Below, piece after piece: positions 2,757 through 50,148 of a DNA stretch of 52,838 nucleotides (positions are counted from its first letter, which is position 1; each line of letters starts with the position of its first letter). The position numbers and the translations under genes are program-made. The notes beneath the pieces were generated by a model. The model did no database searches. It saw nothing but the letters and a program-made list of their open reading frames with translations, and had not been told where the DNA came from. Source of the stretch: an uncultured Mycoplasmatota bacterium (lineage in GTDB: Bacteria; Bacillota_I; Bacilli_A; RF39; UBA660); NCBI GenBank assembly GCA_947642475.1, contig CANRSQ010000003.1, positions 1-52,838 on the forward strand, in the 5' to 3' direction.

Positions 2757-3692
2757 ATGAAAAAAAGACAGGAAGTATATGATTTATATTGGTATTTTGC
2801 TTATGAAAGACAAAATATATTTTGGAAAAAGTTAAATGGTGAAAGTGCGCCTTGGACTGATGATTTTATTTTAAGGGAGTATAAATTTTGTAACAGTTAT
2901 AGAGTAAATGATAGAGTCAGTCAGTATCTTCTTAAAAATGTAATTTATAATGGTAAAAAATATTCTGATGAGGATATGTTATTTAGGATAATCCTTTTTA
3001 AGTTATTTAATAAGGAATCGACTTGGGAATTATTATTGGATAGTTTTGGTGATATTGTACTTGATAATTTTGATATGGAAAGTTATTCTAGAGTTTTAGA
3101 AAGCGCGATATCTAGTGGGATTAAAATTTATAATGATGCTTATATTAGTTGTGCGAATAAGGCGTTTGGTTATGATAGAAAGCATGATAATCATCTTGCC
3201 CTGCTTCATAAAATGTTTAATATTGATAAGTTTCAATTTAAAATTATGAAGTGTGAGACGATGGAAGAAGCTTTTAATATTATTAGAAGTTATCCTTTGA
3301 TTGGTAATTTTATGGCTTATCAACTTGTAACTGATATAAATTATAGCGAGGTTGTTAATTGGAAAGAAGATGAATTTACGGTTGCTGGTCCTGGGTCTTT
3401 ACGAGGAATTAAAAAGTGTTTTATTTCTAGAGGTAAGATGAGTAATGAAGATATTATTAAGTATATGTACAAACATCAAGATGAGGAGTTTAAAAGACTT
3501 AATTTACCTTTTAAAAGGATTGGTGATAGACCATTACAGCTAATTGATTGTCAAAATATTTTTTGTGAACTTGATAAATATTGCAGGGAGGCCCTACCCG
3601 ATTTAAAATCTAACAGGACTAAAATTAAGAAGAAGTATTCTTCTAAGCCTAATAAAATAGATTATATTTATCCTCCTAAATGGAATGTTTAG
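2757..3692 (+). CDS. Putative DNA base-hypermodification family protein (5-hmdU DNA kinase helical / aGPT-pyrophosphorylase-like module)
   Basis: The ORF is solid (strong RBS). The family call rests on the remembered N-terminal block PWTDDFIL..YKFCNSYRVNDRVSQYL. No P-loop is present. Confidence 0.45.
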   Translation: MKKRQEVYDLYWYFAYERQNIFWKKLNGESAPWTDDFILREYKFCNSYRVNDRVSQYLLKNVIYNGKKYSDEDMLFRIILFKLFNKESTWELLLDSFGDIVLDNFDMESYSRVLESAISSGIKIYNDAYISCANKAFGYDRKHDNHLALLHKMFNIDKFQFKIMKCETMEEAFNIIRSYPLIGNFMAYQLVTDINYSEVVNWKEDEFTVAGPGSLRGIKKCFISRGKMSNEDIIKYMYKHQDEEFKRLNLPFKRIGDRPLQLIDCQNIFCELDKYCREALPDLKSNRTKIKKKYSSKPNKIDYIYPPKWNV

Positions 3693-5677: not shown

Positions 5678-6706
5678 TTATTCATTATCTATATCTTTTG
5701 TTTCAATCATAAATTTATCAAAATCCGATTCAAATAATTTATCTTGAATAATTCTATATTTTTCAAATTCAGATAATGCTTTTTCAGTTGCAATTTGATG
5801 GGATATTTTACCAGCATCTTTTAATACATCTAAATCGTCGCTTAATAAGAATTTATCTATTCTTGCACTCCAATCTTCCATTGTCATTGGTATGTGTCTT
5901 CTAGCTCTATTTTCGGCTAAATCTAGAAAGGCTGATACAATAAGTTCTAAACTTTTTAGTTCGTCTTTGGATAAATAGTTTTTGGCAATTACAACATCTG
6001 TTTCTAAAATCTTCCCTTTTGGAGAGTTTTTCCAAGATGTTAATCCCATATTTGTTTTATCGGCATCGGCTCTATCATAAATAATTTCCGCAGCAGTCTT
6101 GTGTGAAACAGCATAATTCATTTTATTTTGAACTTTTTTAAAAAATTTAATTGTAGTTGGCGATTTAGAATCATAATCTACACTAGTTGCATAAATATCT
6201 GTAATCTTTTGATAAAATCTTCTTTCTGATAATCTTATTTCTCTAATTTCAGCAAGTAAGGAATCATAATAATCTTCATCGAAGAATGCACCATTTGCCA
6301 TTCTTTTTTTGTCTATTATATAACCTTTTTTAGAAAACTCCTTTAATATATAAGTAGCCCATCTTCTGAATTGTATAGCCCTTTCGGAATTAACTCTATA
6401 CCCAACAGAGATAACAGCATCTAAATTATAATACTTAACATTTCTAGTTACTTCACGATTACCTTCCTTTTGAACTAGTGCAAAATTTGCACTAGTTGCT
6501 TTTTCTTCCAATTCATATTCTTTATAAATGTTTTTTAAATGCTTAGTTATAACAGTTCTATCAACATTATATAACATTGATATAGCATTTTGGGTAAGCC
6601 ATAAGTCCCCATTTTCGAATCTTACTTGAATTCCTTTTTCATGGGTTTGTCTTTCAAAAATCAAAAATTCTGCACTGCTACTTCTAATCATTAAATCTTT
6701 AGTCAT
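5678..6706 (-). CDS. RhuM-family protein
   Basis: Characteristic YYNLDAVISVGYRVNSERAIQFRRWAT block. The ATG at 6706 follows a GAGGTG RBS; the track's GTG start lies inside the RBS. Confidence 0.8.
   Translation of the reverse strand: MTKDLMIRSSSAEFLIFERQTHEKGIQVRFENGDLWLTQNAISMLYNVDRTVITKHLKNIYKEYELEEKATSANFALVQKEGNREVTRNVKYYNLDAVISVGYRVNSERAIQFRRWATYILKEFSKKGYIIDKKRMANGAFFDEDYYDSLLAEIREIRLSERRFYQKITDIYATSVDYDSKSPTTIKFFKKVQNKMNYAVSHKTAAEIIYDRADADKTNMGLTSWKNSPKGKILETDVVIAKNYLSKDELKSLELIVSAFLDLAENRARRHIPMTMEDWSARIDKFLLSDDLDVLKDAGKISHQIATEKALSEFEKYRIIQDKLFESDFDKFMIETKDIDNE
6473..6497. repeat. Perfect intragenic palindrome, 12-bp arms with a 1-nt centre
   Basis: AACTAGTGCAAA-A-TTTGCACTAGTT inside the RhuM CDS. 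It encodes ATSANFALV in frame. Confidence 0.95.
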
Positions 6707-6780
6707 TTTTGACACCTCGCTTTTTAATAAATCACTACTTTTCGCAATATATAAACATTATACTATGCTTTTTGTATAAA

Positions 6781-6819: not shown

Positions 6820-6894
6820 TGGAGCAAGTGACCGGAATCGAACCGGCATCCTAGCCTTGGCAAGGCCATATACTAACCGTTGTACTACACCTGC
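6820..6894 (-). tRNA. tRNA-Gly (GCC)
   Basis: 75-nt cloverleaf folded by hand: acceptor GCAGGTG/CACTTGC, anticodon loop TTGCCAA, T-loop GGTTCGATTCC, U73, encoded CCA. Confidence 0.9.
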
Positions 6895-9482: not shown

Positions 9483-10328
9483 GCATACATCATTTGCGGT
9501 TATAACTTCTTCTGCTTTTTCAATTATTTTTCCGTTTTCATAGATTAATTCTCCTTTAGTCCACATTTTATTTTCTAGTAAGTTATTAGTTTCATAATAT
9601 TCACATGTGTATATTTCTTCTAAGCCTAATTGTGTATATTTAGTATAATTGATATCAGAAGATAGATTATATTCTGCGTCATTACCTTGGTAAAGTACAT
9701 TATCATCTTTTATTGCAATTAAGATTTGTGAATTTTTATCATTATCTTTTTGAACAAGAAGATAGTATATGTTATCTTTTTCTTTTAATTTCCAATTGTC
9801 AGTAATTTTGATGCCTATTATTTTATTTGCATCAACTTTGTTTTCTTTATAATAAATATTGTTTATTATATATTTGTTATCTTCTGTTCTTGTGATATCA
9901 AATGAAAGGTTTGTACTTTTGATAATTAGTTTAAAATTATTTTCATTGGAGCATTTTTTTAGTCCTGATGCGATACTATATTTTGTGGCTGTGGCTTCAC
10001 AGTCTTTTTCAATAGTTTGTTCATTTTGCATATTTGTATTTTGTGGTTCTTCTTTTTCATAATAATTTATGTATACTAAATAGCCAATTACTGCAAGTAA
10101 TCCTAATATGATAATAATTAGGAAAAAGTTTAATAATCCAGATCCTGATTTTTTATCTTTATATACTATTTTTGTTTTTGGTTTTTGTTTTTTTGTCTTG
10201 TGTTTTATTACCTTTTTTGTTTTGGTTCGTTTGCTTTTTTTGGATTTTGGCTGTTTCTGTTTATTTTCTTTTTCATCTTCATTATATTCTTCTTCGTATT
10301 CATTTTCATAATCATCATAATTATTCAT
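9474..10328 (-). CDS. Hypothetical membrane-anchored protein
   Basis: Acidic then K-rich N-terminus, one TM (LLNFFLIIIILGLLAVIGYLVYI), extracytoplasmic domain of unknown family. Confidence 0.6.
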   Translation of the reverse strand: MNNYDDYENEYEEEYNEDEKENKQKQPKSKKSKRTKTKKVIKHKTKKQKPKTKIVYKDKKSGSGLLNFFLIIIILGLLAVIGYLVYINYYEKEEPQNTNMQNEQTIEKDCEATATKYSIASGLKKCSNENNFKLIIKSTNLSFDITRTEDNKYIINNIYYKENKVDANKIIGIKITDNWKLKEKDNIYYLLVQKDNDKNSQILIAIKDDNVLYQGNDAEYNLSSDINYTKYTQLGLEEIYTCEYYETNNLLENKMWTKGELIYENGKIIEKAEEVITANDVCKK

Positions 10329-17785: not shown

Positions 17786-18000
17786 ATTAAAAAAAATCAC
17801 ATCCTGTATAAGGACGTGATTTACGTGGTACCACCTTAATTTGTAAGTTATACTTACCTTAAGAGCTATAACGCGCTTACCGATATATCTTTGCATATAC
17901 AGCTACCAAAGTGAATTCGTAAAAGATTATTTGTTAGCTCCCACCTATTCTAACTCTCTTTGAAATAATTACTTTTAGTACTACTCTTTGGTCATGGCTT
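17786..18000 (-). promoter_or_regulatory. T-box riboswitch, Phe specifier (UUC)
   Basis: RNA sense: AGAGAG, GGTGGGAGC distal motif, specifier GAA-UUC-A (UUC = 17913..17915), T-box AAGGTGGTACCACG, terminator AATCACGTCC-loop-GGATGTGATT-T8. Confidence 0.85.
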
Positions 18001-18016
18001 TTAAATGACTAAATCA

Positions 18017-25995: not shown

Positions 25996-26871
25996 TTATT
26001 TTTGTTGTATTAATTTACTTATATTCCCTTGATCCATTTTGTTTATAGCAAAGCATTTTTTACCTAAATCTTTTAGTGACGCTCCAATATGATATAGTTC
26101 AGTGTTATCTAGAATTATAAATCTATCATGAAAGTTATTTACTTTTCTTATTGTTACATTTTCATATTGTAAGTTAAATTTTTCTATATCTAAATTTGAT
26201 TTGATGTTTTTTGTCCATATTTCTACTTTTACATTTTCATTTTTATAAATTAAAATATCTAATATGGTTTTATCTATATAATTATCAATAATTATTATTT
26301 TATCTTTAGCTTTTCTAATAAGATTTATAAGTAAGCTATATGCATCGTATATTTGTCCATCATAAAATAGTTTTTCTTTTAAGTCTGGTTTGTTTTCTAA
26401 TTTATCAAAGATAAGATTGAATTTTTCATCATTTTCTAATAGTTTATATTCTACTTTAGTTAATCTATTAAATACATCAGCATTATGTGAAATAAATTGC
26501 CGCATACATACAAAGGCGTCCATGATATTTATACTAACTTCAACTGACTTAGTTGTTTTTAAAACTGCAGACAGCATTGCAACACCTTGTTCTGTAAAAA
26601 CATAAGGTAAATATTTTGAGTACTTTCCTTGTTTTAGTTCTAAGGTCACAGATTGTGACCTTAGAATTTTTTTATATTCTTCTTTCGTTAATTGAAACCT
26701 GAATCTTTCTGGGAATCTTTCTATATTTCTGTTAACAGCTTGATTAAACGCTTTTGTTCCACTCTTATATCCATATAACTTAGCTAAATCAGAATCTAAC
26801 ATAACTTGTTTCCCTCTTATTTCATATATCATGTCTTTTATTTCTTTTTCTTTAATAACTATTTCTGCCAT
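25996..26871 (-). CDS. ORF6N (KilA-N-related) domain protein with PLD-like C-terminal motif
   Basis: IRGKQVMLDSDLAKLYGYKSGTKAFNQAVNRNIERFPERFRFQLTKEE is a typical ORF6N block. C-terminal HDRFIILDNTELYHIGAS resembles HxK(x)4D...GS with K replaced by R. Confidence 0.75.
   Translation of the reverse strand: MAEIVIKEKEIKDMIYEIRGKQVMLDSDLAKLYGYKSGTKAFNQAVNRNIERFPERFRFQLTKEEYKKILRSQSVTLELKQGKYSKYLPYVFTEQGVAMLSAVLKTTKSVEVSINIMDAFVCMRQFISHNADVFNRLTKVEYKLLENDEKFNLIFDKLENKPDLKEKLFYDGQIYDAYSLLINLIRKAKDKIIIIDNYIDKTILDILIYKNENVKVEIWTKNIKSNLDIEKFNLQYENVTIRKVNNFHDRFIILDNTELYHIGASLKDLGKKCFAINKMDQGNISKLIQQK
26638..26666. repeat. Perfect intragenic inverted repeat, 13-bp arms with a 3-nt spacer
   Basis: TTCTAAGGTCACA-gat-TGTGACCTTAGAA inside the ORF6N CDS. 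It encodes ILRSQSVTLE in frame. Confidence 0.95.
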
Positions 26872-26913
26872 TACACACCTCCTTTATCATAATTATTAAA
26901 TTGCCCCTCAATT

Positions 26914-26961
26914 ATAATATACGATATTTGATAGGCAAATTCCTGCAAGAAAATGAAAAAA
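26914..26961. promoter_or_regulatory. Conserved 48-nt upstream module, copy A
   Basis: ATAATATACG - 14 nt - AATTCCTGCAAGAAAATGAAAAAA. The same two blocks with the same spacing occur at 37958..38005. It overlaps a plausible TTGCCT-16-TATAAT promoter of the ORF6N gene. Confidence 0.7.
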
Positions 26962-26981
26962 AACTGCATTTTTTGTGCAGT
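26955..26981 (-). terminator. Rho-independent terminator of clpC
   Basis: ACTGCAC-loop-TGCAGT followed by T8 on the minus strand, directly after the stop. Confidence 0.8.
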
Positions 26982-29273
26982 TTATACAGTTTGGCCTATT
27001 TCTTTGATGTCGATTTCGGTTTTATTATCTATTAGGGCTTCAATAATTAATGTTTCTAATTCATCTTTGATGATTTTACTTACTTTTCTAGCACCATATT
27101 CTTCGTAGTTTGTTTCTTTTATTAGTTTATTTATTACTGATTGTTCTATTTTAATATCGATTTTGTTTTTGTATTTTTCTTTTAAATCTTTTAATTTGAT
27201 ATTTATTATTTTTGTAATATCATCTTCATTTAAATTATTAAAAGCAATTACACTATCTACTCTATTCATAAATGGTATTGAAAATTTATCATTTAATTTT
27301 GTTTTTACTTTATTATCGCTATTAAATCCTACATTAATATCGTGGAAGCCTACATTAGATGTCATGATTATTACAACGTTATCAAATCTTACTATATTGG
27401 ATTTACTATCTTTTATTTTTCCTTCATCTAAAACTTGTAAGAAAAGGTTTATGATGTCATTATGGGCTTTTTCTATTTCATCTAGTATTAGAACTGAGTA
27501 TGGTTTATTTTTTATTTGTTCTAGAATGTTGGTATTATCATCATAGCCGATGTATCCTGGAGGGGCCCCGACTATTTTACTAATACTATGGGCTTCTTTA
27601 TATTCGCTCATGTCTAGTCTAATTACGTTTTTCTTGCCGACTAGATTTTCGCCAAAGACTTTAGCAAGTTCTGTTTTTCCTACCCCTGAAGGACCACAAA
27701 ATAAACATGAATAACATTTATCATTTAAACCTAGTTTTATTTTTTTGGCAATATTGGAAACTTTTTTGACGGCTTCATCTTGCCCGATAAGTTTTTCTTT
27801 GATGATTTTTTCTGTTTGTTTAATTATTGTTTTCTTTTCGTTTAGTAATTCATAAATTGGGATTCCTGTTTTACTATTAACGACATTGGCAACATCTATT
27901 TTTGTTACTTTTTTTGGTTTCTTTTTATAAAGTGTTAGTTCTAGGTTATTTATTTCATTCATTAATTTGAATTCTTCATTTTTATATTCTGAGGCTTTTA
28001 TAAAGTCGTTATTTATTATGGCTTCTTTTTTTTTAGTTATTATATCTTTTAGTTTTTTATTATATTCTTTATATTTACTCATGTTTTTACTTTCTTTTAG
28101 ACTTGCTTTGGCGCATACTTCATCTAGGATATCTATTGATTTATCTGGCTGGTTACGATTATAGATATATTTTTCTGATAGTTCAATGATTAAATCAATT
28201 ATGCCTTCTTCGATGGTGACATTGTGATAGGACTGATATATATCTTTTAAATTTATTAAAATATCTTTTGTTTGATCTTTGGTTGGAGCTTCGATGGTGA
28301 CTTTTTGAAATCTTCTTTCTAAAGCGGTATCTTTGGCAATATATTTTTTATACTCATCGGTTGTTGTGGCACCTATACATCTTAGTTTGCCTCTGGCTAG
28401 GGCTGGTTTAAAGATATTGGATGCATCTATAGCTCCTTCGGCGCCACCGGCTCCTACTAGGGTATGAACTTCATCGATAAAGAGTATTAAATCATCATTT
28501 TCTTCTATTTCTTTTAGAATTTTTTGCATTCTTTCTTCAAATTCACCACGGTATTTGGTTCCGGCTACGCATGCTCCCATATCTAGTCCAATGATTCTTT
28601 TATTTTTTAGAGCGATTGGGACGTCACCATTTATTATCATTCTAGCTAGTTCTTCGACAATGGCGGTTTTTCCTACTCCGGCTTCACCGATTAATAATGG
28701 GTTGTTTTTTGTTCTTCGTGATAAAATTTCTAGAACTCTTTTTATTTCTGGTTCTCTTCCGGTTACGGGATCTAAATTACCGTTTAGGGCTTTTTTATTT
28801 AGATCAACACCTAGTTCTTCTAGCAGAAGTTTTTTGTTTCCTTTTTTGTTTGTTAATTTATAGGTAAATTCGTTATATAGGTCGTCTATGTCGATATTCA
28901 TTCCTATTAATATCCTTATAGCTACGCCTTCTCCTTCTTCTAGGAGACTAGAAAATAGATGATTTATTGTTACGGTTCCATTATTATTTTCTTTGGCGTC
29001 TAAACTGGCGTTTTCAATTATTCTTTTTAGAAGTGGTGTATAAAGGAAGAATTCAGATGACTTGGTTCCTTTTCCAATGGTTTTGATTATTTCGCTTTTA
29101 AATGTTTTATAGTCTAGTTCGTATTCTTTTAATCTTTGGGCTATTTCGTTATCTCCTTTTAGAATTGCGAGTAAAAGGTGTTCTGAGGATACGTAGGGAT
29201 GATTTAGATTTATCATTTCGCTTTTAGCTACTATTAATACTTTTCTGGCTTCTTCTTCAAAACTATTAAACAT
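26982..29273 (-). CDS. clpC: Clp/Hsp100 ATPase, ClpC-like
   Basis: Clp_N repeats at the N-terminus. Two Walker A motifs (GEAGVGKT, GPSGVGKT). 763 aa. Confidence 0.85.
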   Translation of the reverse strand: MFNSFEEEARKVLIVAKSEMINLNHPYVSSEHLLLAILKGDNEIAQRLKEYELDYKTFKSEIIKTIGKGTKSSEFFLYTPLLKRIIENASLDAKENNNGTVTINHLFSSLLEEGEGVAIRILIGMNIDIDDLYNEFTYKLTNKKGNKKLLLEELGVDLNKKALNGNLDPVTGREPEIKRVLEILSRRTKNNPLLIGEAGVGKTAIVEELARMIINGDVPIALKNKRIIGLDMGACVAGTKYRGEFEERMQKILKEIEENDDLILFIDEVHTLVGAGGAEGAIDASNIFKPALARGKLRCIGATTTDEYKKYIAKDTALERRFQKVTIEAPTKDQTKDILINLKDIYQSYHNVTIEEGIIDLIIELSEKYIYNRNQPDKSIDILDEVCAKASLKESKNMSKYKEYNKKLKDIITKKKEAIINNDFIKASEYKNEEFKLMNEINNLELTLYKKKPKKVTKIDVANVVNSKTGIPIYELLNEKKTIIKQTEKIIKEKLIGQDEAVKKVSNIAKKIKLGLNDKCYSCLFCGPSGVGKTELAKVFGENLVGKKNVIRLDMSEYKEAHSISKIVGAPPGYIGYDDNTNILEQIKNKPYSVLILDEIEKAHNDIINLFLQVLDEGKIKDSKSNIVRFDNVVIIMTSNVGFHDINVGFNSDNKVKTKLNDKFSIPFMNRVDSVIAFNNLNEDDITKIINIKLKDLKEKYKNKIDIKIEQSVINKLIKETNYEEYGARKVSKIIKDELETLIIEALIDNKTEIDIKEIGQTV

Positions 29274-36892: not shown

Positions 36893-36919
36893 ATGCTTGT
36901 AATGTGTTCAGCTCAATTG

Positions 36920-36943
36920 GTCACTCGGCGGGTGACTTTTTTT
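36920..36943 (+). terminator. Second, GC-rich hairpin + T7
   Basis: GTCAC-tcggcgg-GTGAC followed by T7. Short stem. Confidence 0.6.
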
Positions 36944-37004
36944 ACACAGCAAATAAAACTTGAGCATATATTTTAATAATCCATTTTTTTATTATAGTTG
37001 TTAA

Positions 37005-37907
37005 TTACAAAGTTTTTTCTAATTCATAAGTAGTCACAAAAATATCATTAGGGTTAATATATTTAAAGACATATTTATCGTTTTCTTTCGCACATATAAT
37101 ACCGATTGTTTTATCGTTAAATGGTTCTTTTATATGTTTATCTACATATCCCATATATTTTTTTATTTGTCCAATATGTTCAGCTTTAAATGATGTCACT
37201 TTAAGTTCTAGTACTACATAGCAATTAAATTTAACGTTGTATAGTAAAAAATCTATGTAATGATGGTTGTTACCTATTTTAATTTTTACCTCATGATCTA
37301 CATATGTAAAGCCTATACCTAATTGTTTTAAAAAATTACTCATATCTTCCAAAATAGCATTATGTATAAATAGTTCATTTATTTTATCTGGAATTTTTTT
37401 AGCATTTATAATTACAGGTTCTTTTATTAAGGTGGTTACTTTGGGGTTATCTAATTCACTTTTATATCCTATTCTTTCGTATTCTTTAGATTTGATTCTT
37501 TCTCTAAGTTCACGTACCGATAAATTTTGAGATTTAATTATGGAAATATAATAATTTTTAGCATTTTCATCTTTTATTGATAAAATTTTATATACATGAC
37601 TCCATGTAAGACCTTCCAAAAGGTGGGACACCGTCCCACCTTTTGGAAATGTTAAATAAAACTGACGCATCCTCTTTAAATTAGAAACATCATATCCCTT
37701 TCCAAGTTCTTTTGTTAATCTCTCAGAATATTCTTTAATGAGTTTGTTGCCATATTTTGCGCGACCTTCCCCACCTTGAGCCTCTATAAGTAATCTTCCT
37801 ACTTCATAATAACTATTTAAATCACTTTTATTTTTAGAATAATCCTTTGCTTTTTTATACATTTCATTTTTTATTAATGTATCTTTTATTTTGTTATAGT
37901 AATTCAT
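37005..37907 (-). CDS. YhcG/DUF1016 PDDEXK-family nuclease-like protein
   Basis: N-terminal SYYEVGRLLIE...NLKRMRQFYLTFP...LTWSH and C-terminal YIDFLLYN...YVVLELKV (PD-(D/E)xK-like) blocks. Confidence 0.8.
   Translation of the reverse strand: MNYYNKIKDTLIKNEMYKKAKDYSKNKSDLNSYYEVGRLLIEAQGGEGRAKYGNKLIKEYSERLTKELGKGYDVSNLKRMRQFYLTFPKGGTVSHLLEGLTWSHVYKILSIKDENAKNYYISIIKSQNLSVRELRERIKSKEYERIGYKSELDNPKVTTLIKEPVIINAKKIPDKINELFIHNAILEDMSNFLKQLGIGFTYVDHEVKIKIGNNHHYIDFLLYNVKFNCYVVLELKVTSFKAEHIGQIKKYMGYVDKHIKEPFNDKTIGIICAKENDKYVFKYINPNDIFVTTYELEKTL
37614..37648. repeat. Perfect intragenic inverted repeat, 16-bp arms with a 3-nt spacer
   Basis: TTCCAAAAGGTGGGAC-acc-GTCCCACCTTTTGGAA inside the YhcG CDS. 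It encodes FPKGGTVSHLLE in frame. GC-rich core in an AT-rich genome. Confidence 0.95.
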
Positions 37908-37957
37908 TAAACAAAACCTTCTTTCTTTTTGGTTTTGCCCTTTTTTATTCTCTATAT

Positions 37958-38005
37958 ATAATATACGGTAAAAGTCTAGCGAATTCCTGCAAGAAAATGA
38001 AAAAA
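37958..38005. promoter_or_regulatory. Conserved 48-nt upstream module, copy B
   Basis: ATAATATACG - 14 nt - AATTCCTGCAAGAAAATGAAAAAA, identical blocks and spacing to 26914..26961. It lies between the GT2 terminator and the YhcG start. Confidence 0.7.
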
Positions 38006-38020
38006 GTTGAAATTTCTTTA

Positions 38021-38052
38021 AAAAAGCAAAAAACTATGTTGTTTACATAGCT
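38021..38052 (-). terminator. Rho-independent terminator of the GT2 gene
   Basis: AGCTATGT-aaaca-ACATAGTT followed by TTTTTGCTTTTT on the minus strand. Confidence 0.7.
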
Positions 38053-38061
38053 TTGCAGTAA

Positions 38062-38751
38062 TTAATTATTACGTTTGTATTTTATTAATACCTTTAGATG
38101 TCTGATGCTATCTCTAATTGGTCTTAGATGTGGTTTTCTTGCTTTCTTTCCTTTGGAAAGTGTGATTGGTATTTCTTTTATTTTATAGTTTTGTTTATAA
38201 CACAATATTATCATTTCACTAGCAAATTCCATACCAGATGATTGTAGGTTTAGTTTTAATATTCTTTCTTTGTTTATGCCTCTTAGTCCACAGTGGAAAT
38301 CGTTTACTCCACATGGATATAGTTTTTTCCCGATATAACTTAAAATGGGATTACCTATATATTTATTTAATAATGGCATGGCTCCTTTTTCAATACCGCC
38401 TTTAAATCTATTACCAATTACTAAATCATTTCCTTCTTCAAGGTATTTATAAAATTGATTTAAATTTAGAAAGTCATATGTATCATCACTATCACCCATG
38501 ATTATATATTTTCCTTTTGCTTTTTTTATACCTTCTAATAATGCGTTTCCATAGCCTTTTTCTTTTACATTAATTACTCTTGCTTTATTTTCTTTAGCAA
38601 TTTTTATTGAATCATCGGTACTTCCGTTATCGGCTATTAACACTTCTCCATCTATGTTATTTATTTTTAGAAATGTTTGGGCTTTTACGATGCATGATTC
38701 TAGGCTTTCTGCTTCGTTTAAACATGGCATTAATATTGTTAATTTCTTCAT
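38062..38751 (-). CDS. Glycosyltransferase family 2 (soluble, 229 aa)
   Basis: TILMPCLNEAESL...ADNGSTDDS...IIMGDSDDTYD (DxD). No C-terminal TM. Confidence 0.8.
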   Translation of the reverse strand: MKKLTILMPCLNEAESLESCIVKAQTFLKINNIDGEVLIADNGSTDDSIKIAKENKARVINVKEKGYGNALLEGIKKAKGKYIIMGDSDDTYDFLNLNQFYKYLEEGNDLVIGNRFKGGIEKGAMPLLNKYIGNPILSYIGKKLYPCGVNDFHCGLRGINKERILKLNLQSSGMEFASEMIILCYKQNYKIKEIPITLSKGKKARKPHLRPIRDSIRHLKVLIKYKRNN

Positions 38752-38830: not shown

Positions 38831-38860
38831 AAGAAAAATCCAAAGAATTAATCTTTGGAT
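38831..38860 (-). terminator. Rho-independent terminator of the HerA-like gene
   Basis: ATCCAAAGA-loop-TCTTTGGAT followed by TTTTCTT on the minus strand. Confidence 0.8.
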
Positions 38861-40632
38861 TATTTTCTATCTATGAACCAGTTTGTACTTATGTCACAAC
38901 TACTACTTGATGGTGGTGGGGTTGGTTTATCTAGTTTTACTAAAACTGGTACTTTAAATGCATTACCAAAGGCTATACAATTACCTGGTTGAAGTACTCT
39001 TAATCTTTTTACGATTTCGTTTGTAATATTTGGTACCATTTCTCTAATATATGTAATGTCTCTTGGATGTAACATTTTGAATATTAAGAAATTATTACAT
39101 TGTGAAATTGATGTTTCTGATAGATCCGATGGTCTTTGTGAGATTAGGCCTAGTAAAACTCCGTATTTTCTTCCTTCTTTGGTTATTCGATCAAAGATGT
39201 TATAACCTAAAAGATTTACATCGTTATCGTTTTGAACGTATCTATGGGCTTCTTCTAGAATAATGTGGAATGGCAATGATGCTCTTTTATCTAGATTTTT
39301 AGCATAGTCGAATAATAGTCTTGAATATATTTTTGTTATTGTTTTAGCAAATCTATCGTCAACATAATTTATGTTGAAATTGATTATTTGGGCTTTTCTA
39401 CCGTTACCTACTAATAATAGATTTTTGATGTAGTCATCGATACTGATATATTCTTTATAGTCAAAATATACTGCATAATCACTATTTAATAAAGTATGTA
39501 ATCTTACTTTTAATACATTGGCTTCATCATATACTCTTTCGCTATTTAATGATCCTTCTGATATTAATGCGAAGTCTAAGGCTAATTTAAGGTCGTTTAA
39601 CCCGTATTTAAATGAACCATCTGGCATCGTAAGCTCAATATTATCATCTAAGAATGATTGCATGAATTTTGTGATTAATTCCATTTCTCTTATTTTACCG
39701 CTGGCATCTATTATTAGGCATTGTTTTAATGTTCTAACATACCCTGGTTGATATATTTGCGAGTCTAGATTTAAATCTTTGGTATTATAATTTGATAATA
39801 CTGAGAATATTTGGTCTCTTATGGTTGAGGCTGGTTTACCACTTGATAGGATATCTAATATTGCTCTGGCGATGATATCGTTTTTTTGTTTGATTACTTC
39901 TGATTCTTCTCTAGCAAAGACGTTAACTAGTTTTAATGCTTTTTCGATAATTGGAAGTTGTGTTGGTTTTTCGGCGTTTAATAGTAACGCGATATCGTCG
40001 ATATTAAGTAACCATAGTGGTATTTTTAGTGTTTCTGAATCACTGAAGTTTGTATTTGTTGTATAGGCTTTAAATGATACTTCTGGTGCGATTTGGTTTA
40101 TATCTTTAAAGGCTGCATGATATTCGCCGTATGCATCGAAGATGAAAATACTAGCTCTATAAGCAACAGTTGTTTTTTTATCAAAAATACTTTGAATTAA
40201 ATGAGCTACTCCCCATGATTTTCCTGAACCTGTTGATCCAAAAATGGCAAAGTGATTTGAGAAAAATTCATTAATGTTAAATCCTATTTTAACGTCTTCG
40301 TATATTGGACTTGTCCCGATATATAAATCTTTATTTTCTTTATAATCATCGACACTTATTATCATTGGTATTTTTTCTTTTGATATAAGTTTTACGGATG
40401 CTCCAAATGATGGTTTTCTAATGACACCAAAAATAAATTTATTATTTATGATTTCTCCTAATAAATTTACATATGCGATTCCGTCTTTGATATTGGCAAT
40501 CTCACCGACTATGATTTTATTGTCATCTTCCATTACAACGTGTAAATTGACTAAGTTTTGAAATTCTTTTAATTCAATATTTAATCTAACTAGAACTGTA
40601 TCTTCTTCTAGCCCCATTATTACTCCTAACAT
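38860..40632 (-). CDS. HerA/DUF87-type ATPase (HAS-barrel + FtsK/HerA-like P-loop)
   Basis: N-terminal barrel-like region, Walker A IFGSTGSGKSW, Walker B FHIILEEAHRY, arginine-finger region LISQRPSD. Confidence 0.75.
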   Translation of the reverse strand: MLGVIMGLEEDTVLVRLNIELKEFQNLVNLHVVMEDDNKIIVGEIANIKDGIAYVNLLGEIINNKFIFGVIRKPSFGASVKLISKEKIPMIISVDDYKENKDLYIGTSPIYEDVKIGFNINEFFSNHFAIFGSTGSGKSWGVAHLIQSIFDKKTTVAYRASIFIFDAYGEYHAAFKDINQIAPEVSFKAYTTNTNFSDSETLKIPLWLLNIDDIALLLNAEKPTQLPIIEKALKLVNVFAREESEVIKQKNDIIARAILDILSSGKPASTIRDQIFSVLSNYNTKDLNLDSQIYQPGYVRTLKQCLIIDASGKIREMELITKFMQSFLDDNIELTMPDGSFKYGLNDLKLALDFALISEGSLNSERVYDEANVLKVRLHTLLNSDYAVYFDYKEYISIDDYIKNLLLVGNGRKAQIINFNINYVDDRFAKTITKIYSRLLFDYAKNLDKRASLPFHIILEEAHRYVQNDNDVNLLGYNIFDRITKEGRKYGVLLGLISQRPSDLSETSISQCNNFLIFKMLHPRDITYIREMVPNITNEIVKRLRVLQPGNCIAFGNAFKVPVLVKLDKPTPPPSSSSCDISTNWFIDRK

Positions 40633-42251: not shown

Positions 42252-42285
42252 AAAAGAAAAAACTTGATTATTTGGTATCAAGTTT
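42252..42285 (-). terminator. Rho-independent terminator of the Bro-N gene (overlaps its 3' end)
   Basis: AACTTGAT-loop-ATCAAGTT followed by TTTTTCTTTT on the minus strand. Confidence 0.75.
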
Positions 42286-43128
42286 ATTATTTTTTTCTAA
42301 ATATCTTCCGCCTATATTATTTTCTATTTTTATAGCTTTCTGTTTTGTTTCTTGTTCATAATAATCTTTCGCTATTTTGGATATTGTGCCTCCCCTTTTA
42401 GCTACATTTAAATTTTCTTTTAATCCCGTTGGTTTTTCCTTTTTGGCAATGTCTCTTGTTGTTAGTTCTCCTAAATCAGCTAGTACTAGTTCTATATCGC
42501 TCATATTATCTCTAAGTGATTCTTTTCTAATTCCTTTTAACTGTTTATATTCTTTTGCGGTCATATTAGACCAGGTTTTATAAATTTCATTTGTTAGCAT
42601 GGCATATTCATAGTTTTCGGTTATGCCACCTTCTTTCCAAATGTCTGTAAGTTTTTTTCTATTTAGAATTCCATTAACTCGTGATTTGATCCAATCGTCT
42701 GAATAACCTTTGTTACGATAGTATTCTATGGCTCTATTTATGGCTATTTCTGGGTCAAATACTTCGTCGATTCTTTCTTTTCCTAAAGTAGCCAACCACA
42801 TTTTAAATGGTTCGGCTTTTGGACTTGGCACTGATTCGATTAAACGAAGTATTCCTTCTGTATCTAGGGTGTCGGTCGGATAGTTCTTTCCATCCTTTTG
42901 TGATTGCATTTTTAGTTTCCGACATTTTGTCGGAATCTCACTTTTTTCTTGTTTTGTTAATCGCCTCTTTAACGTCGTCCAATAGTCACTTGGGTCATCA
43001 CTTTCTGTTAAAACAGCTATAACGTCGACAACTGATAAATAGTAATCTTCCTTGTCTGCGTCCCATATACTTCTGATTTTATTTCCTTCAAATAAGTCAG
43101 TAATTGTTTGTAGTTTGTTTTCCTTCAT
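42268..43128 (-). CDS. Bro-N domain protein, DinD-like
   Basis: FEGNKIRSIWDADKEDYYLSVVDVIAVL (Bro-N). The C-terminus LRDNMSDIELVLADLGE...AKRGGTISK resembles the DNA-damage-inducible protein D type. Confidence 0.75.
   Translation of the reverse strand: MKENKLQTITDLFEGNKIRSIWDADKEDYYLSVVDVIAVLTESDDPSDYWTTLKRRLTKQEKSEIPTKCRKLKMQSQKDGKNYPTDTLDTEGILRLIESVPSPKAEPFKMWLATLGKERIDEVFDPEIAINRAIEYYRNKGYSDDWIKSRVNGILNRKKLTDIWKEGGITENYEYAMLTNEIYKTWSNMTAKEYKQLKGIRKESLRDNMSDIELVLADLGELTTRDIAKKEKPTGLKENLNVAKRGGTISKIAKDYYEQETKQKAIKIENNIGGRYLEKNNKLDTK
42917..42935. repeat. Perfect intragenic inverted repeat, 8-bp arms with a 3-nt spacer
   Basis: TTCCGACA-ttt-TGTCGGAA inside the Bro-N CDS (IPTKCRK). Short enough to arise by chance on its own. 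Confidence 0.8.
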
Positions 43129-43208: not shown

Positions 43209-43238
43209 ATTGTAACAAATGTTCGTTGTTGTCGTCAA
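43209..43238 (-). promoter_or_regulatory. Promoter of the Bro-N gene
   Basis: TTGACG - 18 nt - TACAAT with TG extended -10 (minus strand). Confidence 0.55.
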
Positions 43239-48780: not shown

Positions 48781-48935
48781 GTTTTCTAGGAACGAAAAGC
48801 CGTGGTACCATCCTAATTAGTCTTAATTAATATAACGGTTTTACCCGGATGTGTTTGCACATCACTCAAAAGGAGCTTTCGGTTAATTTGTTTTACTAGT
48901 TTCCACCATACACTAGCTCTCTATGAAAACTTGAT
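48781..48935 (-). promoter_or_regulatory. T-box riboswitch, probable Ala specifier (GCU)
   Basis: RNA sense: AGAGAG, CTAGT-GTATGGTGGAA-ACTAG, specifier region CCGAAAGCUCC (GCU = 48874..48876), T-box AGGATGGTACCACGG (UGGU pairs with an A73 discriminator), terminator followed by TTTTT before the AAGGAG RBS. Confidence 0.8.
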
Positions 48936-48939
48936 TAAC

Positions 48940-50148
48940 TTACTTTTCTTTTTTTACGTTTTTATTTATTTTTTTGACTGAAATTTTTGTATCTTCGACT
49001 TCTAACAATTCGGGCTGCCTGTCTATAATGTTATATTTACGGTCGAAGAATTGGAATATTGTTTTTCCAACTGCAATACATGGAGTTGAAATAATCATTC
49101 CTAGCATTCCGAAGAAATAGCCAAATACTAATAGTCCTAACATAATTGTTACTGGATGTAACTTTGTTGTTTTTGACATAATAAATGGTTGTAGGAAGTT
49201 TCCTTCTAAGAATTGTATTACGATAATTACAATTAAGGTTAGAATACCTACGGTTGGGCTTTGAGTAAATCCAACGATTACGGCTGGAGCGCCTCCAATA
49301 TATGGTCCTGCGTAAGGAATTAAATTTGTAAGTCCACAGAAGAATCCGAATAATGCGGGTGCTTTTAAGCCTACTAGCCATAGGCCGATTGATGTTAATA
49401 TAAATACGGCTGAACAATCGATAATTGCGCCTTGAACATATTTTCTAAGTGAATTATTAACGTCGTTAATTAAGTCCATACTTGTTTCTCTGAATTTTTT
49501 TGGTAAAAAGTTAATAAGCGCGGTTTTTGAAGTTGAGCTTACTAGTAGGAAGAATCCAATGATTAGTCCTAGTACTAGTGTTCCCATACCAGAGAAGAAG
49601 CCTGATATAAAGTTAAATAGTCCTGCTGGTAATTCTTTTGTGACACCGGCAGCTGTTTGATTGAATTTTTCAAAGAATTCATCTTTAATAGCCTCGGCAT
49701 CAATATTTTGAATGTTCTTTAGATGGTCAAACATATTTAAGCACCATGCTTTAATGGATTCAAATACGTCTGGGGCTATTTTAGCGAATTCGGTTATTTG
49801 ATCTGCAAGTAATGGAATTAAAGCGGCTAAAACTAGAAATACTATTAAGAAAAGTATTAGGTATGTTATGATTGCTCCAAAGGTTCTTTTGATTCCTTTT
49901 GTTTGCATCCATTTTACAAATGGGTCAAATAGCCAAGCTATTAATATTCCTATAAATAGTGGTGCGACTATTTTAACTATTGTCCATATAAAGTGTAATA
50001 TATTTGTTTCTTTAAATAGTAAAATAATTAAGTATAGACCTAAAGCTAGCAGTAAAAAGTATGTAGCATTTAATACTTTAGATGCGCGGTCGGCTACTTC
50101 GTTTATTTTTTGTTTATCAATTTCTGTGGCAGTTTTTTTTCTAAACAT
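48940..50148 (-). CDS. AI-2E family transporter (PerM/YubA-like)
   Basis: About 8 TM segments with typical layout and the PLFIGILIAWLFDPFVKWM region. The RBS overlaps the frr 3' end, so it is co-transcribed with frr. Confidence 0.8.
   Translation of the reverse strand: MFRKKTATEIDKQKINEVADRASKVLNATYFLLLALGLYLIILLFKETNILHFIWTIVKIVAPLFIGILIAWLFDPFVKWMQTKGIKRTFGAIITYLILFLIVFLVLAALIPLLADQITEFAKIAPDVFESIKAWCLNMFDHLKNIQNIDAEAIKDEFFEKFNQTAAGVTKELPAGLFNFISGFFSGMGTLVLGLIIGFFLLVSSTSKTALINFLPKKFRETSMDLINDVNNSLRKYVQGAIIDCSAVFILTSIGLWLVGLKAPALFGFFCGLTNLIPYAGPYIGGAPAVIVGFTQSPTVGILTLIVIIVIQFLEGNFLQPFIMSKTTKLHPVTIMLGLLVFGYFFGMLGMIISTPCIAVGKTIFQFFDRKYNIIDRQPELLEVEDTKISVKKINKNVKKEK

Follow-up and report, generated by a model that had tools for sequence, protein, structure and literature searches.

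A bipartite module found twice in the window, the whole 52,838-nt stretch of DNA that was analysed, is most likely the promoter of two minus-strand genes, and is probably read by an alternative sigma factor of the sigma-H (Spo0H) type. Judging from sequence, we place the probability of this reading at roughly two in three. The motif, its spacing, its position, its conservation and its match to a published consensus are direct observations. A single sigma-factor regulon would explain why a perfectly conserved block is common to two unrelated orphan genes. The element would then be one of a known kind in a new lineage, a sigma-H-type promoter with a variant -10 element and interesting targets; as a kind of element it is ordinary, and its regulon is modestly interesting.

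Direct reading of the window (29% G+C) confirmed that identical blocks of 24 and 10 nt surround a variable 14-nt spacer at 26914–26961 and 37958–38005, and that the two spacers agree at six of their 14 positions. On the plus strand both copies read ATAATATACG-N14-AATTCCTGCAAGAAAATGAAAAAA. Even at a tolerance of three mismatches, the window contains the 24-mer AATTCCTGCAAGAAAATGAAAAAA just two times; 100 dinucleotide-preserving shuffles contained none. A third match to the bipartite pattern, at 10062, is weak (three mismatches) and lies inside a coding sequence, and was put down to chance. The preliminary description had also placed TTGCCC next to both copies, at 26901 and 37935, with a distance to the module that differs by 10 nt, which is correct. 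Its naming of the flanking genes as ORF6N, ClpC-like ATPase, YhcG/DUF1016 and GT2 glycosyltransferase agrees with Pfam, and all four genes are on the minus strand. Because both downstream genes are on that strand, the module must be read as the reverse complement. On the sense strand it is TTTTTTCATTTTCTTGC-AGGAATT-N14-CGTATATTAT, followed by a GAGGGGCAA leader, a Shine-Dalgarno sequence (SD) and ATG.

The first copy lies between a clpC-like gene (26982–29273, minus strand; Pfam Clp_N and two AAA domains) and a gene for a 291-aa ORF6N-domain protein (25996–26871, minus strand; Pfam ORF6N, 2e-31; PADLOC candidate PDC-S05, 3.8e-113). In the sense direction the order is the clpC stop, the hairpin AAACTGCAcaaaaaaTGCAGTTT, TTTTTTCATTTTCTTGC-AGGAATT-tgcctatcaaatat-CGTATATTATAATTGAGGGGCAATTT..., AAAGGAGG and ATG. 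The hairpin (26961–26983) was called as the intrinsic terminator of the clpC-like gene, with eight pairs and a T-run, where 0.1 are expected in shuffles. It is followed by the T-rich, UP-like tract TTTTTTCATTTTCTTGC (26945–26961), whose 5' T-run is also the U-tract of this terminator. The putative -35 element AGGAATT (26938–26944) makes GCAGGAATT together with the two preceding bases and fits the sigma-H -35 consensus at nine of nine positions (PMC4754846). The spacer TGCCTATCAAATAT (26924–26937) contains TTGCCT, a sigma-A-like -35 reported by the sigma-70 scan, and is followed by the putative -10 element CGTAT (26919–26923), which extends to CGTATATTAT (26914–26923). The SD-like leader GAGGGGCAA (26901–26909), the reverse complement of which is the TTGCCC mentioned above, lies at the predicted 5' end of the mRNA, and the ORF6N gene has its own SD, GGAGG, at about 26878–26882.

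The second copy has the same plan. It lies between the GT2 gene (38062–38751) and a gene for a 300-aa protein of the YhcG/DUF1016 family of PD-(D/E)XK nucleases (37005–37907, minus strand; Pfam DUF1016_N and YhcG_C; PADLOC candidate PDC-S02, 2.2e-71), and its sense order is ...CAACTTTTTTCATTTTCTTGC-AGGAATT-cgctagacttttac-CGTATATTATATATAGAG(aataaaaaa)GGGCAAAACC..., GAAGG and ATG. The T-rich, UP-like tract TTTTTTCATTTTCTTGC (37989–38005) is preceded by CAAC and AAAGAAATTTCA, both of which are seen in the related loci L086 and L090 too. AGGAATT (37982–37988), the spacer CGCTAGACTTTTAC (37968–37981) and CGTAT (37963–37967, extended to CGTATATTAT at 37958–37967) follow. The leader (37909–37940) includes GGGCAA at 37935–37940 and, compared with other copies, has an insertion of about 10 nt between TAGAG and this GGGCAA. 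A 10-bp hairpin, GGGCAAAACC/GGUUUUGUUU, is also predicted in this leader (-9.1 kcal/mol; z -2.56); it stops 4 nt short of the start codon and is not seen in the other copies. By direct reading, the GT2 gene is followed by the hairpin CTATGT-aaaca-ACATAG and six T (38034–38050, minus strand), likely a weak terminator that ends some 22 nt before the block; its G-C pairs were too few for the terminator scan to call it. The module had been described as starting at the T-run of the upstream terminator in both places. This holds for the first copy, where the T-run of the clpC-like terminator enters the block, and not for the second, where the gap of some 22 nt intervenes. The proposals that the module overlaps the promoters of the two orphan genes, and that it includes an UP-like element, were both borne out, the latter for its T-rich part.

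Sigma-H is a stationary-phase and sporulation sigma factor of Bacillus. Its motif in B. subtilis is AGGAATT-N14-CGAAT (PMC6849360), and the consensus given for Listeria and Bacillus is (A/G)(A/C)AGG(A/G)WWW-N11-12-(A/G)(A/G)(A/C)GAA(A/T) (PMC4754846). Both window copies read GCAGGAATT-N12-A(T/C)CGTAT. They agree with the first motif at 11 of 12 bases with the exact spacer, and with the -35 part of the second at nine of nine. Both thus carry the sigma-H -35 in either form (RNAGGAWWW or AGGAATT) and its spacing, 14 nt or N11-12 between the 9-mer and the 7-mer. At -10, CGTAT replaces (C)GAAT, a match of four bases in five with a consistent A-to-T change. Both copies are at promoter distance upstream of genes and on the gene strand. 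The other genes in the same DNA show, by eye, ordinary sigma-A hexamers, so the module is not the housekeeping promoter of the lineage. This lineage has the sporulation genes GerQ, SpoVIF, Cse60, gpr and SpoIIP, and an orthologue of Spo0H is therefore expected in it. No sigma-factor gene was found in the window with Pfam, or in 324 kb of related loci with tblastn, a weak search with a B. subtilis SigH sequence as query. Two other classes of promoter were rejected as well: a sigma-54 reading of TTGCA, since direct reading found no TGGCAC at the right distance, and the sporulation sigma-E/F/G/K consensus sequences, which fit less well than sigma-H, chiefly by mismatches at -35.

Copies of the module recur in related genomes. 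When one genome per species was scanned for a 20-mer taken from the block, four contigs of the MAG 'uncultured Tenericutes bacterium' CAMYRF01 and a fifth contig from another MAG were recovered, all with the same architecture; the remaining matches (L001–L004, L008, L009, L011, L013, L014), in GC-richer Bacteroidota or archaeal DNA, were judged to be chance. In CAMYRF01 the module precedes two ORF6N paralogues, one of them after fusA-tuf, and a 142-aa gene after lysS, as well as an apparent decayed gene fragment. A metagenome scan found the motif on AT-rich contigs before bacteriocin ABC exporters with a C39 peptidase (L022, L027; also L007) and before a spoIIP gene located after gpr (L019/L021). 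The scan of viral contigs returned coding-sequence coincidences in unrelated phages and nothing else.

The MAGs of related uncultured AT-rich Bacilli gave 26 distinct instances, which supports the earlier view of the module as a real conserved regulatory element. The pattern used to collect these instances fixed AGGA(A/T)(A/T)T and CGTAT, so the constancy of the -35 and -10 bases within this set is built in; the -35 forms in relatives are AGGAATT, AGGAAAT or AGGATTT. The spacer is 14 nt long in 22 of the 26 and 13 nt in four, and its sequence is variable. In all instances CGTAT is on the sense strand, 16–55 nt upstream of the start codon. The genes behind the module are ORF6N paralogues, first-in-tandem YhcG genes, CdiA_C-like genes, bacteriocin exporters and spoIIP. 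At the syntenic clpC-ORF6N locus L079 (67% protein identity), AGGAATT, 13 of the 14 spacer bases and CGTATATTA are kept. About 10 nt before the -35 lies a T6 tract that is partly conserved, and invariant in an alignment of 11 sequences of relatives; TA.A after CGTAT is partly conserved too. Most instances have a G-rich block 11–14 nt after CGTAT. This block is a functional SD in L007, L022, L027 and L077b, whereas the ORF6N, YhcG and CdiA_C genes have, downstream of it, another SD, which is the true one. Conservation of the upstream T-tract and the leader exceeds what a sigma factor needs for recognition, and extra factors or recent copying may therefore contribute.

Loci fetched by protein homology alone form an independent test, because the motif played no part in their selection. 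Here it stands upstream of seven of the eight ORF6N genes examined, before every first-in-tandem YhcG gene, and before a CdiA_C-domain gene (a homologue of the 142-aa gene in L010) and an ORF6N gene after obg. The second YhcG copies of the tandems, 10 nt downstream of the first, have neither the motif nor a promoter of their own. When the 324 kb of related DNA were scanned for AGGAATT (at most one mismatch)-N13/14-CG[AT]AT, the sites found were exclusively intergenic and directly upstream of gene starts, and the -10 was always CGTAT and never CGAAT. Within the window the two copies are the only sites that match the motif. ORF6N homologues are numerous in one of the relatives, with at least nine on a single contig of 1,267,149 bp (ENA ERZ28758397 contig_11845, loci L074–L076), a marked expansion for a genome as small as 1.27 Mb. 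The three of these loci that were checked are each solitary, after ftsZ, prmC and spoVIF, respectively. Intact tandem pairs of YhcG are present in the relatives L085 and L091. In the window, a decayed second tandem fragment lies just downstream of the intact YhcG gene, at about 36898–36975 (minus strand); it is 26 codons long, one of them a stop (LKYMLKFYLLCKKSHPPSDQLS*THY), and aligns to residues 77–102 of the second YhcG of L085 (E 5e-4).

The module shares with the sigma-H promoters of Bacillus and Listeria the -35 heptamer, the spacer length and four of five -10 bases, and, like them, directly precedes genes in a Firmicute lineage that forms spores. It differs from them in its -10, which is GTAT and not GAAT in 26 of 26 instances of a set whose collecting pattern fixed CGTAT, and the sigma factor that would read it is a presumed one. 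The targets seen so far differ as well: in these instances the module precedes defence- or toxin-like genes, bacteriocin exporters and spoIIP, and not spo0A, spoIIA or com genes. In B. subtilis, spoIIP is not known to be among the sigma-H targets. The ftsA gene has a sigma-H promoter in B. subtilis, while only a sigma-A-like promoter is visible upstream of ftsA in L074. ComGC-like pilin genes are sigma-H targets in Listeria. In L091, L010 and L027 these genes have sigma-A-type promoters and lack the module, so a competence (ComX-like) regulon is not supported. The cin-box of streptococcal ComX (sigma-X) is TACGAATA and needs no AGGAATT at -35. The module has a -10 core of the same CG(A/T)ATA shape as the cin-box and the sigma-W -10 CGTATA, along with the T-rich upstream region, but in contrast to the cin-box it does have the AGGAATT -35, and the competence pilin genes here go without it.

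The leader of the module recalls STAB-SD of cryIIIA, an SD-like stabiliser at the 5' end of Bacillus mRNA, in that GAGGGG lies at the predicted mRNA 5' end, well upstream of the real SD. Stabilisation by the module is hypothetical, however, and the same block is plainly a functional SD in some paralogous promoters. A close precedent for the module as a whole is a 40-bp block, conserved before the int genes of staphylococcal prophages, which was shown experimentally to be a sigma-H promoter (PMC2869324). Like the module, this block is conserved, non-coding and common to many genes of mobile-element type, and, having no sigma-A or sigma-B motifs, it proved to be the promoter of an alternative sigma factor, sigma-H (PMC2869324). 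Its sequence (GGGTAGCCCGCCTACCC...) is unrelated, and it serves prophage integrases where the module serves chromosomal solitary genes.

The main alternative retains the promoter and changes its reader, which would be an ECF-type (group 4, sigma-W-like) or lineage-specific sigma factor in place of a Spo0H orthologue. It ranks first among the rivals since CGTA resembles an ECF -10, and we consider it unlikely. ECF promoters have CGT in their -10 elements and AAC as the hallmark of their -35 elements, usually 16–17 nt apart; CGTATA is the -10 of the ECF factor sigma-W, whose promoters read TGAAAC-N16-CGTA. The sigma-W-type CGTA is present in all instances of the module, and it is this resemblance of CGTAT(A) to the ECF and sigma-W elements, with GTAT in the place of the sigma-H GAAT in every instance, that speaks for such a factor. 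So do the GGAAT within the -35, which is seen in some ECF promoters, and a regulon of bacteriocin exporters and toxin- or defence-like genes that are not classic sigma-H targets. The -35 itself, however, is GGAATT without AAC and thus not of the sigma-W type, the distance from AAT to CGT is 15 nt, and the full AGGAATT heptamer with its 14-nt spacer matches the sigma-H motif exactly, where sigma-W has TGAAAC and a 16-nt spacer. No ECF sigma/anti-sigma pair adjoins any copy.

It is less probable still that the module is a housekeeping sigma-A promoter in which AGGAATT/CGTAT or the palindrome TTCTTGCAGGAA is a shared activator or repressor site. The sigma-70 scan did find TTGCCT-16-TATAAT (10 of 12 bases) at the first of the two copies, and in many close relatives TTnnCC follows GGAA and TAYAAT follows CGTATAT. 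Designed promoters in which sigma-H and sigma-A elements interlock in exactly this arrangement work in B. subtilis (PMC6849360). The first copy, AGGAA-TTTGCCT...CGTATAT-TATAAT, resembles this synthetic PHA series in having its sigma-A-like elements one step downstream of the sigma-H-like ones; it differs from the series in being natural, and its sigma-A-like hexamers are weak and are absent from the second copy and from distant relatives. At the second copy the scan found no sigma-70-like site on the minus strand (consensus TTGACA-16-18-TATAAT), and L019, L022, L027 and L075 lack acceptable sigma-A hexamers yet keep AGGAAWT-N14-CGTAT. The palindrome reported in the 24-nt block is present in the window in an imperfect form (TTCTTG/CAGGAA, five of six pairs), whereas its conservation in relatives failed: it becomes TTTTAACAAGGAA or AAAAAAAGGAA in L079, L077b, L074, L075, L085 and L088. 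In L079, where CTTGC has changed to AACAA and the palindrome is thereby lost, as in L074, L075 and L077b, the -35 and -10 persist, which speaks against its proposed role as an operator. A spacer of fixed length and variable sequence likewise argues for two contacts of a sigma factor and not for one operator.

It is very improbable that the module serves mainly as a site of recombination, or as the boundary of mobile cassettes that carry one gene each (ORF6N, YhcG, CdiA_C) and insert behind housekeeping terminators. The idea draws on real features: genes of the ORF6N and YhcG families are solitary but present in several copies, each behind a different housekeeping operon; one and the same YhcG protein is encoded downstream of polC, of HerA or of a CdiA_C gene; the upstream edge of the module is where synteny breaks; and two unrelated neighbouring genes in L085 have identical spacers. 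The spacers and the breaks lend weak, indirect support to the boundary that the preliminary description had suggested, but the features of a recombination site were not found. No inverted or direct repeat partner lies at the other end of the genes, the window has no copies on the second strand, and none of the copies has a linked recombinase. Different species share the clpC-ORF6N and tuf-ORF6N positions, with 67–80% protein identity, which marks these as old, stable insertions. The differing contexts could be metagenome assembly joins across repeats, and copying of a promoter by homologous recombination explains identical spacers with no dedicated site. We read the identical spacers and the synteny breaks as occasional promoter copying of this kind.

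A small plus-strand RNA, from the plus-strand TATAAT to the neighbouring hairpin, can hardly be upheld: TATAAT is on the plus strand at both copies, with TTGCCC-16-TATAAT at the second, but the plus-strand -35 is absent at the first, the plus-strand folds are no better than those of shuffles (z -1.4 and -0.2), Rfam gives no match, in relatives the plus-strand 3' flank of the block is a different terminator at every locus, and the hairpins, described earlier as bidirectional terminators, are followed by a T-run on the minus strand only at both copies.

For the sigma-H-type promoter, we infer from the motif and its surroundings how it would fire, where transcription would start, which sigma factor would read it and when. 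The sigma factor would contact AGGAATT at -35 and CGTAT at -10, 14 nt apart, and the T-rich upstream tract TTTTTTCATTTT may act as an UP-like or curved-DNA enhancer, which in the first copy would reuse the U-tract of the clpC terminator. Transcription is predicted to start some 6–10 nt after CGTAT, near 26909–26913 and 37953–37957. The mRNA would then begin with the SD-like GAGGGG(CAA), a possible 5' stabiliser or a relic of the original ribosome-binding site; no consistent short open reading frame that could encode a leader peptide follows GAGGGG across the copies. Since this promoter is found before ORF6N, YhcG and CdiA_C-like genes that are scattered and solitary, as well as before bacteriocin exporters and spoIIP, all of these would be regulated together, and presumably turned on as cells pass into stationary phase or sporulation, in these uncultured, AT-rich, spore-forming gut Bacilli with small genomes.

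PADLOC assigns the ORF6N and RhuM genes of the window to PDC-S05, YhcG to PDC-S02 and a Bro-N gene to PDC-S13, all of them candidate single-gene defence systems. Given these defence classes of the module genes, the regulon so far consists mostly of conflict-type genes. A RhuM-domain representative of PDC-S05 is reported to have protected E. coli against T7, T5 and T4 (preprint 10.1101/2024.09.26.614923), and PDC-S02 was not among the protecting systems in that E. coli test (10.1101/2024.09.26.614923). A wider and quite tentative proposal, one that we would not expect to hold, is that a sigma-H-family factor controls a dedicated 'conflict regulon' by way of a portable promoter-plus-leader unit of about 90 bp. 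Its members would be the solitary, multicopy candidate defence or toxin genes (ORF6N/PDC-S05, YhcG/PDC-S02, CdiA_C-like) and the bacteriocin exporters, and the unit would be copied by recombination before unrelated genes that land behind housekeeping terminators. If this were true, expression of defence genes would be tied to stationary phase or sporulation.

The timing of expression of candidate defence genes is rarely known, and the promoter, if confirmed, would give a handle on that of candidate anti-phage or toxin genes and bacteriocin exporters. The searchable motif AGGAWWT-N13/14-CGTAT can define the regulon in an uncultured small-genome lineage of Bacilli, and a sigma-H-like promoter whose -10 varies naturally (GTAT for GAAT) is documented.

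Several further features of the window and of the related loci were noted. A solitary RhuM-family gene (5678–6715, minus strand; Pfam 3.8e-107; the PDC-S05 candidate mentioned above) lies directly after a tRNA-Gly gene (6820–6894, minus strand); it has a sigma-A-like extended -10 (TAGTATAAT), and the module is absent. The solitary Bro-N gene (42268–43128, minus strand; PDC-S13) has the promoter TTGACG-N18-TACAAT (upstream, 43209–43238), overlapped by the LexA/Cheo-box-like sequence CGAACATTTGTTAC (43212–43225), so this gene may be SOS-regulated. A HerA-type ATPase gene (38860–40632, minus strand; DUF87; PADLOC HerA, 2.4e-116) lies between yqeH and the GT2 gene, with no recognisable partner nuclease or Sir2 gene adjoining it. 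In L090 a YhcG gene directly follows HerA, and among L085–L090 identical YhcG proteins are encoded after polC, after HerA, or after a two-component system and a CdiA_C gene; the synteny breaks at the edge of the promoter module in these loci could be real rearrangements or assembly joins across a repeat. On a contig of 38% G+C, L020 (Ga0268280_1054984), positions 474–505 read CTTGCAGGAATT-N13-CGTATATAA between an HNH-endonuclease gene and a 68-aa open reading frame, which may reflect a phage that uses the same host sigma factor, or chance. The gene at 2757–3692 (plus strand) encodes the helical domain of a 5-hmdU DNA kinase (HMUDK_hel, 2.6e-104), a DNA-modification domain of phage type, here alone among housekeeping genes. 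Two T-box leaders, at 48785–48965 and 17807–18004 (both minus strand; Rfam 109 and 106 bits), are also present, one upstream of pheS-pheT and the other before a 190-aa DNMK-like open reading frame that is followed by a short (585-aa) AlaRS.
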